Source: Candidatus Zhuqueibacterota bacterium
GTDB lineage: Bacteria; Zhuqueibacterota; Zhuqueibacteria; Zhuqueibacterales; Geothermadaptataceae
Direction of reading: 5' to 3'
Length of the DNA stretch: 64,000 nt
Assembly (NCBI GenBank): GCA_030950365.1
Contig: JAUZRQ010000091.1
Span: forward strand, 20,820-84,819
Shown here: in pieces, positions 799-11,722 of the stretch
How the letters are laid out: every line of letters starts with the position of its first letter
Numbering within the stretch: position 1 is the stretch's first letter
Notes under the pieces: generated by a model
The model's input: the letters and a program-made list of their open reading frames with translations, nothing else
What the model was told of the DNA's origin: nothing
The model's database searches: none
Position numbers and translations under genes: made by a program

Positions 799-1689
799 AT
801 GGCCATGCGGAAATCCATTTTGGTTTTGACAGGTATCGTTCTCATTCTTTCTGGCTGTAGCCCCTGGCTGGCGGATCACCGGCCGGACACGCGCAAGGCA
901 CTGCCCGGACTGGAACACGTGCAATCCTTTGCCGTGGTTTACCAGCACATCGAACCGGACCAGCTCATGCCATTTGACATGGTGATCCTCGAAGCCGAAC
1001 ACTACCGCGCGGAGGAAATCGAACAATTGCGCCGGGCTGGCAAAACCGTGATCGGCTATGTCAATGTGGGCGAAATCGAAGCCTATCGCGTCTTCGCAAA
1101 TCAGGTACCAGAACGCTGGAAACTGGCTGACAATCAGCACTGGCCCGGGCACACATTCATCAATCCCGGCTGGAAGGGCTGGCGGATTCTATTACGAGAC
1201 TATGTTCTGGATCGCATGCGTGAAAAAGGCTTCCACGGTCTTTTTTTGGACAGTGTCGATCTGGCAGCTCCTTGGCGTTTTCCGAAAACACGCGCGGACA
1301 TGGTGAAATTGATTCGCTGGCTCCACCGGGAGTATCCGGAAATGATGTTAATTTTAAACAACGGGCTATTTATTCTCAATGATCTGGTCGATTCTATTCA
1401 TGGTTTACTTATCGAGGAATTGTTTTTCACCATAGATCAGGAAGGTCGCTACACGGTGCGCCCTACGAGCAATCGCATCACGCTGTTGAAAGACATTTTG
1501 CGGGCCAAAACGCGCTGGAATCTGCCCGTGTTTCTGGTGGATTATTGCCCGGCACCGCCACCACAAATCTGTCACGACATCAAACGCGTATCGGGCCTTC
1601 TGGGGCTTCCGCATTTCGTGACCGATTATTACCTGACCCAATTGTATCCGGAGATCAACGTAGCGCCCGTGGAGGTACAACAGGAATAA
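799..1689 (+). CDS. Lipoprotein with TM1410/GH114-like glycoside hydrolase fold (PelA hydrolase-domain-like, stand-alone)
   Basis: Signal peptide plus lipobox (VLILSGC). Motifs GYVNVGEIE and GLFLDSVD are typical of the PF03537-type endo-alpha-1,4-polygalactosaminidase/PelA hydrolase fold. First gene of the Pel-like operon. Confidence 0.7.
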   Translation: MAMRKSILVLTGIVLILSGCSPWLADHRPDTRKALPGLEHVQSFAVVYQHIEPDQLMPFDMVILEAEHYRAEEIEQLRRAGKTVIGYVNVGEIEAYRVFANQVPERWKLADNQHWPGHTFINPGWKGWRILLRDYVLDRMREKGFHGLFLDSVDLAAPWRFPKTRADMVKLIRWLHREYPEMMLILNNGLFILNDLVDSIHGLLIEELFFTIDQEGRYTVRPTSNRITLLKDILRAKTRWNLPVFLVDYCPAPPPQICHDIKRVSGLLGLPHFVTDYYLTQLYPEINVAPVEVQQE

Positions 1690-1765
1690 TTAGTACGAAT
1701 CAAAATCGCAATAGGATCACAGAATGAGCCCATTTGGCCTCGCTAATTGAAATCTGGATTCAGGC

Positions 1766-2614
1766 ATGCAACTTCAATTTGAACACGGCGATAACTACAT
1801 CATCATCCGCTGCGAAGAACCGACGCGCCTGGATGCACTCACCAAAGATGCGTTTTTTCAATCGGTTATGGGGGTGTACCATCCGGGCAAGGCGGTGATT
1901 CTGGATTGCCACAATCTCGATTACATTGACAGCGCGGGCATTAGCGCGCTGATTTCGCTGCGAAAACGGATTGTGCAAAATGCAGACCGGCTGATCCTGG
2001 TGGGCCTGCATCCCGACTTGATCGACCTGTTTCACATCTCGAGATTGCACCGGGTTTTCGATATTATAGATACATTGGAAATGGCTCTGAAAAGCCTCAA
2101 CCAAACACAACGGCGAGAGTCTACTGCCAGCGTTACCGAGGTAAATCTCGTGGCCCAATCACGAGAGGGCATCCTGGTTTTGCAACTGGTGTCTCCGGAC
2201 TCCCTTATCGAAGCGAATAGTGTGGAGTTTATCGAAAAATTCAAACACCTTACAAAAGCATACAAACGCATCCTGCTTAATATCGATCATTTGAAAAACC
2301 TTGACGGTATGGGCATTGCCGCGCTGGTCCACCTGCAGTCACATGCAAATAAGCAGGGTAAGGAATTGGTATTTATTTATTCATCCCAAACCCTGAAACG
2401 GCTTTTTAAGATGTACCACGTTGATGACTTGTTTCGCAGTATGAACAGCATCGATGAAGCCCTGGCCGAAATGCGAAAACCAACATCGATTGAAAAAATT
2501 CATGCTGAACGGCAAAACAAGCCGCCTGTAAATCGCGGGAACCGAAACCATGCAGAGTATGTTGACTTACAATTCCTCCACTCAGCAAAAAAGAAAATGG
2601 TTGAATCCTTATAA
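1766..2614 (+). CDS. Tandem STAS-domain protein (anti-sigma-factor-antagonist-like, two STAS repeats)
   Basis: Two SpoIIAA/RsbV-like units. Unit 1 has LDYIDSAGISALISL (DSxG with Ser). Unit 2 has LKNLDGMGIAALVHL (Ser replaced by Gly). The 3' end overlaps the pelD-like ORF by up to 65 nt. Confidence 0.8.
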   Translation: MQLQFEHGDNYIIIRCEEPTRLDALTKDAFFQSVMGVYHPGKAVILDCHNLDYIDSAGISALISLRKRIVQNADRLILVGLHPDLIDLFHISRLHRVFDIIDTLEMALKSLNQTQRRESTASVTEVNLVAQSREGILVLQLVSPDSLIEANSVEFIEKFKHLTKAYKRILLNIDHLKNLDGMGIAALVHLQSHANKQGKELVFIYSSQTLKRLFKMYHVDDLFRSMNSIDEALAEMRKPTSIEKIHAERQNKPPVNRGNRNHAEYVDLQFLHSAKKKMVESL

Positions 2615-9921: not shown

Positions 9922-9922
9922 C

Positions 9923-11722
9923 ATGAGAACGATTGCACAAAAAATAGCCGTGCTAACTACTGTATTGGCCATCACCATGGCTACTATGCAAGTGCCGGCA
10001 TCGACGCCAAGTCGCGGCAAGGCTGCAAATCTTTTGCAATCGCTGCTGGCCCGCGGCGATCAACAAGCGCTGCAGCGAGCAGTGCAATCGCTGGCCGCGC
10101 GCACCGATTTGCCGCCACGGGAGGTGGTGGGAATTGGCCGCATGTTGATCGATTCCGGTCATACGCAATGGGCCATCGATTTCCTCAAAGCGCAACATTC
10201 GAAGCGACCTCGGTCTTTCACGATCGGGCGCGTGCTGGCCGAAGCCTACGTGGAGAGCAACCACCTCGACCGTGCGATTGCGCAGTATCAGGCCCTGGCC
10301 AGGCTCGCCCCGGACAGCGTGGCGATCCATTTGCGGCTTGGCGAGATCGCGCTCTGGCAGGAGCGCCAGGATATTGCCACAGCGGCGTACGAAACGGCAT
10401 TAAAAATCCAGCCCCAAAACCGGGTGGCTCTGTCGAAATTGCGGCAGTTGTATTTGTGGAATGAAAAGCTGGAAAAGGCTTACCAGATCGAGAAAGTGCT
10501 GTTGAGACTGGAGCCCGACAACGCCGATCTCTGGAAAGAACATGCGCAGCACGCACGCTGGCTGGAAAAACAGCGCGAGGCCATCCGGGCCTGCAAGCGC
10601 TATTTGAAGCTCCGGCCGCAGGACATGGAAGTCTGGGTGTGGCTGGGGGAGGGCTACTTGTGGACGGATCAGCCGCAAAAGGCCGAACCGATTTTTCGCT
10701 TCATTCTGACGCACGATCCGACCAATTTGAAGGCTCGATTGTACCTGGCGCAAATACTACAGTGGCAGCCCGGCCGCTGGAAAAAAGCGCGCCAGCATTT
10801 CGAATTTATTCTGCGCCACCAACCCGGGCACGCCGCCGCGCGCGAGGGTTTGCGGCTGCTCCGCGAAAACTACGGACCGCGCACCCGCACCCTGGCCAGC
10901 TATTACACCGATTCCAATCGGCTGCAAAAGACGCGCCTCACCGGAGCGTACGAGCGATTTGTGAGCGACCATTGGCAAATGGAATGGCAAACGTATTATT
11001 TCGGCATGGCCGAAGACAAGCCGATCGGCACGGTGCGCGTTGCCGGCCTCGGCGGGGCTCTGCGCTTGAATCGGACTCTGTCATCGCGGCTCCAGTTCAT
11101 GGCAACGGCCGGGGTTCTGCGTTTCCAGTCGTCGGAATCGTTCGCCACCTTGCGGCTACAAAGCGATTTTGTTTTCCGAAATGGTGTGTTCGCGGCGCTG
11201 TATTATCAGCTCAGCCCGGTGGAAGACGGGGTGCTGGCGATCAAGAACCGCTATCGCGCGCATCGGCTGGGACAGAGTTTCTCTGGCCGGTTCGGGAGCC
11301 GGTTGCAGATTTTCATGGATGGCCAACTGGCCTGGTACAGCGACGGCAATCGAAAATCTATTTTTTATGGCACAGCGGAATTCCGATTCTTTGGCCACAA
11401 GCCCTCGATGCATCTGGCCGGCATTTTCTCTTATGAAAATACAACGATTCAGTATGCCAATAGCACCCCCTACTGGACGCCATCCCACTTCTGGTCGCGC
11501 AGCCTCGGTGGCGTGATCCGGTACCCATTTGCCGCCAATCGGATCATCAAAGCCGGTTTGTACCTCACCCGACAACCCGGCAACGAAACCGCCCGCAACG
11601 GCTTCATCGAGCTGGATTGGCGGCTGAGCCGATTTTCGCATCTGCGCCTGGCCTACCGCGATTTCGGCTCGCAATTTTACGCCTATCAGTACATCGAAGC
11701 CGGATTCTGGATTCGCTGGTGA
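9923..11722 (+). CDS. PelB-like export protein: signal peptide, TPR array, C-terminal beta-barrel
   Basis: I moved the start from the track's 9812 to ATG 9923, one nt after the pelG stop, giving the signal peptide MRTIAQKIAVLTTVLAITMATMQVPA. Multiple TPR-like repeats run through about residue 330. The rest is an alternating-hydrophobic, Tyr/Gly-rich region ending in ...YQYIEAGFWIRW, an aromatic terminus typical of OM barrels. Confidence 0.6.
   Translation: MRTIAQKIAVLTTVLAITMATMQVPASTPSRGKAANLLQSLLARGDQQALQRAVQSLAARTDLPPREVVGIGRMLIDSGHTQWAIDFLKAQHSKRPRSFTIGRVLAEAYVESNHLDRAIAQYQALARLAPDSVAIHLRLGEIALWQERQDIATAAYETALKIQPQNRVALSKLRQLYLWNEKLEKAYQIEKVLLRLEPDNADLWKEHAQHARWLEKQREAIRACKRYLKLRPQDMEVWVWLGEGYLWTDQPQKAEPIFRFILTHDPTNLKARLYLAQILQWQPGRWKKARQHFEFILRHQPGHAAAREGLRLLRENYGPRTRTLASYYTDSNRLQKTRLTGAYERFVSDHWQMEWQTYYFGMAEDKPIGTVRVAGLGGALRLNRTLSSRLQFMATAGVLRFQSSESFATLRLQSDFVFRNGVFAALYYQLSPVEDGVLAIKNRYRAHRLGQSFSGRFGSRLQIFMDGQLAWYSDGNRKSIFYGTAEFRFFGHKPSMHLAGIFSYENTTIQYANSTPYWTPSHFWSRSLGGVIRYPFAANRIIKAGLYLTRQPGNETARNGFIELDWRLSRFSHLRLAYRDFGSQFYAYQYIEAGFWIRW

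Follow-up and report, generated by a model that had tools for sequence, protein, structure and literature searches.

Results

Eight co-directional genes form a Pel-type locus

We analysed a stretch of 64,000 nucleotides (nt) from a Candidatus Zhuqueibacterota bacterium (contig JAUZRQ010000091.1, positions 20,820 to 84,819 of the forward strand; this whole stretch is called the window below) and focused our attention on positions 799-11722, where eight densely packed, co-directional open reading frames (ORFs) on the + strand make up a locus of the Pel type. Pel is a major polymer of the biofilm matrix. The gene order is A(H)-STAS-D-E-A(DA)-F-G-B, that is, a PelA-like hydrolase, a protein with two STAS domains, PelD, PelE, a PelA-type deacetylase, PelF, PelG, and PelB. 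A metagenome-assembled genome (MAG) of candidate division KSB1 contains identical copies of five of these proteins (MDQ7065591, MDQ7065593, MDQ7065595, MDQ7065596, and MDQ7065597).

Two proteins match Pel family models directly. First, pelF (7031..8440, +) encodes a GT4 glycosyltransferase, the polymerase, which scores 354.3 bits against NF038011 (cutoff 100) and has the N-terminal DUF3492 domain (PF11997, E = 1.2e-82). Second, pelG (8428..9921, +) encodes the inner-membrane Pel exporter and matches PF16933 over its full length (E = 1.4e-106; 357.5 bits, cutoff 29). NCBI (PGAP) gives the same names to both proteins (PelF, MDQ7065595.1; PelG, MDQ7065596.1).

Neighbouring genes overlap or nearly touch at several junctions. 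At TAATG (4035-4039), one base is common to the PelD stop TAA and the PelE ATG; the deacetylase ATG at 4758 (alternative start at 4770, chosen by NCBI) precedes the PelE stop (4796-4798); pelF and pelG share 13 nt, from the PelG ATG at 8428 to the end of the PelF stop TAG (8438-8440); and the PelG stop TGA (9919-9921) is followed by a single base and then the ATG of pelB at 9923. A first-pass annotation of this DNA had listed the same eight ORFs and cited four junctions (4035-4039, 4758/4798, 8428/8440, and 9921/9923), all of which are exact in the sequence, and its call of a Pel-type synthase-dependent locus is correct. Its guesses at the gene identities were also right, save that the label CE4 for the 748-amino-acid (aa) deacetylase is dropped here in favour of PelA-type.

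The gene order recurs in a monophyletic set of loci

We scanned one genome per GTDB species with a profile of the deacetylase, which retrieved 563 relatives, and annotated the best 80 loci with profiles of the window proteins. The window order, with eight or seven genes, was found in L001/L006, L002=L009, L007, L008, L010, L013, L003=L014, L011, and L062, and thus recurs in at least nine other species-level genomes, as well as in two metagenome contigs (L092 and L095). The record titles of these window-type loci name KSB1, "uncultured Deferribacteres", Calditrichota, Bacteroidota, and Cytophagia. Their deacetylases are 33-79% identical and their flanking genes are unrelated; because the block recurs between unrelated flanks, the arrangement is not a chance juxtaposition. 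In neighbour-joining trees, the window-type loci are monophyletic, in 100/100 bootstraps for PelF and in 79/100 for PelG.

Nearly all other retrieved loci have the canonical order (C)-A(H)-A(DA)-B-(C)-D-E-F-G. Their hosts belong to Desulfobacterota, Myxococcota, Methylomirabilota/Rokubacteria, Omnitrophota, Planctomycetota, and Bdellovibrionota, and include other members of KSB1 and Calditrichota. The nearest PelF and PelG neighbours outside the window clade are canonical-order loci of Desulfobacterota. In the canonical-order loci, too, the GH114 hydrolase and the deacetylase are separate, and since this holds for almost all of the 80 loci, a split PelA is common in diderms.

PelA is divided between the first and the fifth gene

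The first gene (799..1689, +) encodes a PelA(H)-like glycoside hydrolase, resembling endo-alpha-1,4-polygalactosaminidases (PF03537, GH114; E = 2.7e-22). It is a predicted lipoprotein with the lipobox LSGC and a weak LPAM_1 match, and its best solved relative is the hydrolase domain of Pseudomonas aeruginosa PelA (5tcb, E = 1.6e-17). Most clade loci have a GH114 gene at this 5' position. We considered GH114 as an obligatory member of the arrangement and rejected the idea, as one locus (L003) lacks the gene and in another (L010) no GH114 was detected ahead of the STAS gene.

The fifth gene (4758..7004, +) encodes a PelA-type de-N-acetylase of 748 aa that lacks a hydrolase domain. No Pfam or NCBIfam model matched this protein. 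By sequence search, its residues 208-599 match PelA (PDB 9cgy) with E = 3.3e-45, the HIDGDGF motif being identical and the SHxxxHPF metal motif conserved. An AlphaFold (AF2) model built with 22 homologs has a mean predicted local distance difference test (pLDDT) of 87.5 and a predicted TM-score (pTM) of 0.87, and shows an N-terminal signal or anchor helix (residues 11-28) and a C-terminal helix (701-729). In Foldseek, the model matched 9cgy (E = 5.6e-43, TM 0.72 over 676 columns) and nothing else came near. We therefore rejected the label CE4, for which there was no Pfam match and for which CE4 folds reached only E ~1e-3. Residues D279, D281, H348, H352, and H496 are invariant in 23 homologs, and correspond in kind to the Asp/His/His/His zinc ligands of the Bacillus cereus deacetylase PelADA (PMC13254593). 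A C-terminal transmembrane helix with basic residues was found on the deacetylase only in window-type loci. By these matches, the 748-aa protein is PelA minus its hydrolase domain, and the predicted lipoprotein of the first gene supplies that domain. Both halves of PelA are encoded, as two genes in place of the fused protein.

These two proteins bear on what the locus makes. Pel-family machinery might produce a polysaccharide with another sugar or linkage: no epimerase (GalE) that would supply UDP-GalNAc (GalNAc, N-acetylgalactosamine) is encoded in the operon, unlike in some characterised loci, PelG is only ~30% identical to proteobacterial PelG, and a caution that divergent loci may yield different polymers has been published (PMC7112194). 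We regard such a product as unlikely, since PelF scores as an equivalog far over the cutoff, the hydrolase is nearest to the alpha-1,4-N-acetylgalactosaminidase domain of PelA, and the deacetylase is of the PelA type with invariant catalytic metal ligands. The product would rather be a Pel-like, partly de-N-acetylated GalNAc polymer.

PelD keeps its c-di-GMP site and PelE lacks a membrane anchor

The third gene, pelD (2601..4037, +; ORF open from 2550), encodes a membrane-anchored protein with a GAF and a degenerate GGDEF domain. Three to four hydrophobic helices at the N-terminus are followed by GAF matches (GAF_2, E = 2e-05, below Pfam's cutoff, and GAF) and a GGDEF match (E = 2.2e-14). The RxxD I-site is kept (RSMD), the GGDEF motif is degenerate (RPGEF), and both features are the same across PelD orthologs; given an intact I-site and a degenerate active-site motif, PelD is predicted to be a receptor of cyclic di-GMP (c-di-GMP) and not a cyclase. 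A phmmer search of PelD against PDB did not retrieve P. aeruginosa PelD at E <= 0.01, reflecting low similarity to the type protein. Alignment to ortholog N-termini indicates that the start is most likely TTG 2601, which would give a 14-nt overlap with the STAS gene; at ortholog STAS/pelD junctions there is a 4-7 nt overlap or a gap of ~10 nt.

The fourth gene (4037..4798, +) encodes a PelE-like HEAT/TPR (tetratricopeptide repeat) scaffold of 253 aa, with HEAT_2 (E = 6.1e-11) and TPR matches. It matches a PelE profile that we built, as do the PelE proteins of canonical loci. By definition, PelE of Pel systems combines N-terminal transmembrane helices with a cytoplasmic TPR domain; no transmembrane segment was found in the window protein, and extension of its ORF upstream is blocked by a stop at 4034-4036. 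This is a property of the clade: PelE is 251-256 aa long in most members and 308 aa in one, and none has a hydrophobic helix, whereas in loci of canonical order PelE usually has 330-380 aa and carries one to several transmembrane segments at its N-terminus.

A short PelB without a PelC partner in the locus

The last gene (9923..11722, +) encodes a protein of 599 aa that we assign to PelB by AF2, Foldseek, and hhalign. Profile searches returned TPR matches and a weak match to the PgaA porin. The AF2 model (pLDDT 80.9) has a signal helix, 17 TPR helices (about eight TPRs), and then 16 strands that form an outer-membrane beta-barrel. Foldseek matched it to BcsC (9b8a, E = 2.1e-12), to PelB of the PelBC complex (9h80_M, E = 4.1e-9, TMt 0.63), and to PgaA (4y25, E = 2e-8, TMt 0.72). 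In hhalign, a profile of the barrel could be aligned with the C-terminal ends of PelB proteins in canonical pel loci (E = 3e-8 and 1.5e-5), and the last residues of the protein (...FWIRW) resemble an outer-membrane protein signal. In view of the match to PelB of pel loci, we rejected the alternative that a PgaA or BcsC had been recruited as the barrel; the model, Foldseek, and hhalign all uphold the earlier proposal of a PelB-like TPR and barrel gene at the 3' end. PelB is ~600 aa long throughout the clade, compared with ~1100-1200 aa, or two genes, elsewhere.

A PelC profile from 32 pel loci found no match, either in the 64 kb of the window or next to any of the window-type loci. That a PelC might be hidden in the window was likewise rejected, as the profile search of the 64 kb found no PelC-like ORF.

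The core is probably diderm in origin despite its Gram-positive order

The first-pass annotation had rightly recognised that D-E-A(DA)-F-G, together with a hydrolase encoded separately, equals the synteny published for Gram-positive bacteria (pelDEADAFG; PMC7112168). It had gone on to read the locus as a Gram-positive-like core with an appended Gram-negative export gene, in an intermediate or independently assembled architecture. Taken literally, the core would have come from, or be ancestral to, the Gram-positive operon, and the addition of a Gram-negative PelB would have made a true hybrid or intermediate. Besides the shared order and the hydrolase nearby (PMC7112168), the deacetylase has a membrane anchor, which B. 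cereus PelADA also has (PMC13254593), and diderm Fusobacteria such as Cetobacterium carry a Gram-positive-type locus, so such transfers happen. Nonetheless, we hold a hybrid origin to be very improbable, on several grounds.

First, the window deacetylase matches Pseudomonas-type PelA only. A search with it against B. cereus PelADA (9zau, of the CBM114-CE26/DUF2194 type) found no match even at E <= 10; as a control, the DUF2194 PelADA of Cetobacterium somerae matches 9zau at 4.8e-72, and hhalign detected no resemblance between this control and the family profile of the window deacetylase (probability 0.2%). The anchors differ as well, the window anchor helix being C-terminal and that of B. cereus an N-terminal helix, M1. 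Second, in a test that is indirect, the Cetobacterium locus, our proxy for the Gram-positive type, never grouped with the window clade in the PelF and PelG trees (0/100), in which the nearest outside relatives are the canonical diderm loci described above. Third, the barrel is homologous to PelB of canonical diderm loci. Moreover, a Gram-positive-type system is by definition one with a monoderm host and no outer-membrane exporter, whereas the window encodes the PelB barrel together with LpxB and LpxK, from which it follows that the host is a diderm with an outer membrane. A tblastn search of PelG against PLSDB plasmids, made for monoderm reference sequences, returned diderm hosts only. The separate hydrolase is no mark of the Gram-positive type either, given the split PelA of almost all 80 diderm loci.

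Taken together, the comparisons favour a rearrangement inside a diderm lineage that would have reproduced the Gram-positive order by coincidence. Of the earlier interpretation, the Pel locus, the gene order, the PelB, and the added STAS gene stand, and "independently assembled" fits if it is understood as rearrangement within a diderm lineage; "Gram-positive-like core" and "intermediate" do not, in view of the deacetylase type and the diderm PelF/PelG neighbours.

The Cetobacterium locus (L086; C. somerae plasmid p1, NZ_CP143320.1, 264860-274094) is of interest in itself as a Gram-positive-type Pel locus in a diderm fusobacterium. Its order is pelA(H)-pelD-DUF2194 PelADA-PelE-like-pelF-pelG-hypothetical, with a PelD of 403 aa that has a GAF domain only and an extended PelG of 703 aa, and it includes neither PelB nor PelC.

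A rare tandem-STAS gene is linked to pelD

The second gene (1766..2614, +) encodes a protein of 282 aa with two STAS domains (PF01740 twice, E = 2.1e-29) that we predict to be a regulatory subunit or adaptor; that it is an addition to the locus, as first proposed, is confirmed. The protein scores 84.7 bits against TIGR00377 (cutoff 53.45). Domain 1 keeps the serine of a DSAG motif (S56, invariant in 11 relatives), which is the serine found in anti-sigma antagonists that can be phosphorylated. In domain 2 of the window protein, Gly replaces this Ser (DGMG), and the Ser is kept in five clade loci (L002, L007, L008, L010, and L013). Behind a variable linker lies a conserved C-terminal motif, [YF]xD[LI]x[FL][LIM].

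The tandem-STAS family is rare, with five clusters in a protein database of 5.8 billion sequences, and in every evaluable full-length relative the gene lies directly upstream of pelD. This is the case in 8/8 distinct genome loci that contain the gene, in L088, and in 7/9 of the best metagenome loci; of the remaining two, one lies at a contig end and in the other the locus is truncated. The overlap of the STAS gene with the putative pelD start suggests translational coupling. One metagenome contig (L093, 6395-8946) has GH114 and tandem STAS followed only by the C-terminal part of the PelB barrel, either through an internal deletion of pelD through pelG or as an assembly chimera.

STAS domains adjoin pel genes in two other lineages. 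Single STAS genes lie next to pelD in two Desulfobacterales MAGs (L016 and L026). In Methylomirabilota/Rokubacteria, pel loci are headed by a single ORF in which an RsbW-like kinase (HATPase_c_2) is fused to STAS (L042, 4255-5145; L050, 8074-9000; L073, 8165-8995; also L044 and L074), directly upstream of GH114-PelADA-PelB-PelC-PelD. These STAS and RsbW-STAS genes hint at partner-switching control of Pel synthesis. A full-text literature search found no described link between STAS and a pel operon.

The two Desulfobacterales loci have a further peculiarity, an opposite-oriented second cluster, STAS-pelD-pelF-pelG-GH114, beside a PelC/GH114/PelADA group, so that their Pel machinery appears partly duplicated or divided. 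The pelF ORF of one of them (L016) is 834 aa long, possibly a PelE-PelF fusion.

We hypothesized that the tandem-STAS protein serves the Pel synthase as a dedicated subunit gated by phosphorylation, which would dock on PelD, or on soluble PelE through its C-terminal peptide, and add partner switching to control by c-di-GMP. We put this forward only tentatively. A conventional anti-sigma-factor antagonist, which would act on transcription through a sigma/anti-sigma pair encoded elsewhere and would be neither a subunit nor a regulator of the synthase, is a possibility to which we give comparable, limited credence. Such a role would agree with the NCBIfam superfamily placement (TIGR00377, 84.7 bits), the conserved domain-1 serine, the frequency of SpoIIE phosphatases in the window genome, and the pel-linked RsbW-like kinase of Methylomirabilota/Rokubacteria, which is the usual anti-sigma factor. 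It agrees less well with the lack of any sigma or anti-sigma gene in the operon or the scanned window, and with a rare family that is found only before pelD, often overlapping its start, a pattern more typical of a complex component. STAS proteins can also bind GGDEF proteins directly, for which HsbA-HsbD provides the precedent (PMC5085249).

Boundaries of the locus and other genes in the window

A divergent intergenic region of 490 nt (309..798) precedes the first gene and is the presumed promoter region of the pel operon. To its left lies an ATP-binding cassette (ABC) transporter ATPase gene on the - strand, with a start near 308 and the Walker A motif GPNGAGKTT, which runs beyond the left end of the window; one ortholog locus (L001) has the same divergent ABC neighbour. 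A listed 148-aa ORF at 49-495 (+) is a shadow ORF of this gene. To the right, pelB is followed by a convergent Peptidase_MA_2 gene.

Further genes of the window deserve a brief mention. On the - strand at 55301-59707, a response regulator with REC and TackOD1 domains is encoded together with a kinase of the HisKA/HATPase type and an ATPase of the T2SSE family. The ATPase has an MshEN domain, a module known to bind c-di-GMP, and is possibly another c-di-GMP output in the window. Two neighbouring genes for DUF4388-containing response regulators (427 and 859 aa) lie at 16257-24081 (-), along with the gene for an NtrC-type sigma-54 activator. A 687-aa protein encoded at 29428-31491 (+) joins several HEAT repeats to a prolyl isomerase of the cyclophilin type, and a DUF5916 protein of 882 aa with a weak, below-cutoff CBM9 match is encoded at 33547-36195 (+). 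The window also holds two SpoIIE-type phosphatase genes, one with a HAMP domain, the other cut by the window end and beside REC and HDOD genes. SpoIIE/PP2C-type phosphatases are the enzyme class that dephosphorylates STAS antagonists, and any tie of these two to the STAS gene of the pel locus would be conjectural.

Discussion

A Pel operon probably rearranged within a diderm lineage

The eight genes likely constitute a complete and probably co-transcribed Pel-type operon of a diderm KSB1 bacterium, with a clade-specific, rearranged Gram-negative architecture. Homology shows PelF as the predicted polymerase, PelG as the predicted exporter, and PelD as the putative c-di-GMP sensor, and likewise assigns modification of the polymer in the periplasm to the PelA-type deacetylase and the separate lipoprotein resembling the PelA hydrolase, both in a predicted role; the short PelB barrel is, by homology, the outer-membrane exit.

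On this basis, we suggest how the machinery might work. The C-terminal helix would tether the deacetylase to the inner membrane beside PelG, functionally like PelADA of B. cereus. Pseudomonas PelA is held on the long TPR array of PelB. We propose that the inner-membrane tether could explain the short PelB, because a long TPR platform and PelC would then be unnecessary; no PelC ring would be used, as in the PgaA and BcsC systems. PelE would be a soluble cytoplasmic HEAT/TPR scaffold. The tandem-STAS protein might serve as a dedicated post-translational regulator that binds PelD, PelE, or PelF depending on the phosphorylation state of the serine in domain 1, and partner switching would thereby add a second input beside c-di-GMP.

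Several points weigh against a rearranged operon that works in this way. The window lacks PelC, whose role in P. aeruginosa has been described as essential (PMC12141448), although a pelC gene could lie in another part of the MAG. The model of the short PelB was built on an alignment of four sequences and has a pTM of 0.55. Scans for sigma-70 promoters and intrinsic terminators gave no more matches than shuffled sequence, and we infer the polymer, the co-transcription, and all protein contacts. The neighbour-joining trees are poorly resolved at depth, PelD and PelE distances are saturated or NaN, and the Gram-positive type is represented in them by the one Cetobacterium locus, with no Firmicutes PelF or PelG. 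As to the STAS protein, it could act through a sigma factor, its second domain has lost the serine in the window genome, no RsbW-like kinase was found in the window, and the two SpoIIE/PP2C-type phosphatase genes (37623-40238, +, and 63369-63998, -) are 26 and 52 kb away.

To our knowledge, nearly all work on the Pel machinery has been done in Pseudomonas and Bacillus. Against that background, the locus shows the extent to which diderm machinery can be rebuilt with the PelD-F-G core retained. The missing PelC ring, the half-length PelB, the soluble PelE, and the inner-membrane deacetylase are natural tests of which contacts are dispensable. A bridge between the Gram-positive and Gram-negative Pel systems, in turn, does not hold. 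The advance is incremental in this respect, since rearranged pelA and pelB, split pelB genes, and pel loci that gained or lost genes have already been described in general terms (PMC7112194).

The Pel operon is conserved and was already annotated in part, and the STAS linkage is its most original feature. The repeated capture of STAS genes by pel loci, with kinases in one phylum, suggests a phosphorylation-based input beside c-di-GMP. If the hypothesis of a phosphorylation-gated subunit is true, pel loci of KSB1-like bacteria, Desulfobacterales, and Methylomirabilota would each have acquired STAS or RsbW-STAS independently, and partner switching would be a widespread regulatory layer of synthase-dependent exopolysaccharide secretion that was not found in the literature searched.

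Comparison with known systems

Compared with pelABCDEFG of P. aeruginosa, the window has homologs of both halves of PelA and of PelB, PelD, PelE, PelF, and PelG. Among solved structures, its deacetylase is closest to 9cgy and its hydrolase to 5tcb, both of Pseudomonas PelA, its PelD keeps the RxxD I-site alongside a degenerate GGDEF motif, and the outer-membrane exit consists of TPRs and a 16-strand barrel in both. Unlike in P. aeruginosa, PelA is split into two distant genes, PelB has 599 aa in place of ~1200, PelC is missing, PelE is without transmembrane helices, the deacetylase has a C-terminal membrane anchor, and a tandem-STAS gene is added.

The closest relatives outside the clade are canonical diderm loci with a split PelA, such as those of Desulfosarcina variabilis (L017), KSB1 MAGs (L018, L022, L029, and L070), and Methylomirabilota (L050). 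Their deacetylases are ~30-35% identical to that of the window, the hydrolase is separate likewise, and some of them carry STAS. They differ from the window in a long or two-gene PelB, a PelE with transmembrane segments, usually a PelC, and a deacetylase without the C-terminal anchor.

B. cereus ATCC 10987, with pelDEADAFG and an adjacent pelAH (PMC7112168, PMC13254593), has the same core order and a separate hydrolase. In both systems the deacetylase is membrane-tethered and has three domains, alpha/beta/alpha, esterase, and beta-rich. However, the window deacetylase has no detectable match to 9ZAU, its host is a diderm with PelB, PelE is soluble, and STAS is present; moreover, the hydrolase gene is co-oriented at the 5' end, whereas that of B. 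cereus is divergent.

Like the PgaA and BcsC porins, the short PelB combines TPRs with a 16-strand barrel and seems to work without a PelC-type lipoprotein ring. Unlike them, the barrel is tied by profile to PelB and is placed in a Pel operon, not in a pga or bcs operon.

Finally, the STAS gene can be set beside HsbA-HsbD (PMC5085249), in which a STAS protein with a conserved phosphorylatable serine is likewise genetically tied to a GGDEF protein that controls biofilms. The window protein differs in that it has two STAS domains, its putative partner is a degenerate GGDEF receptor within a synthase complex, and the operon encodes no kinase or phosphatase of its own.

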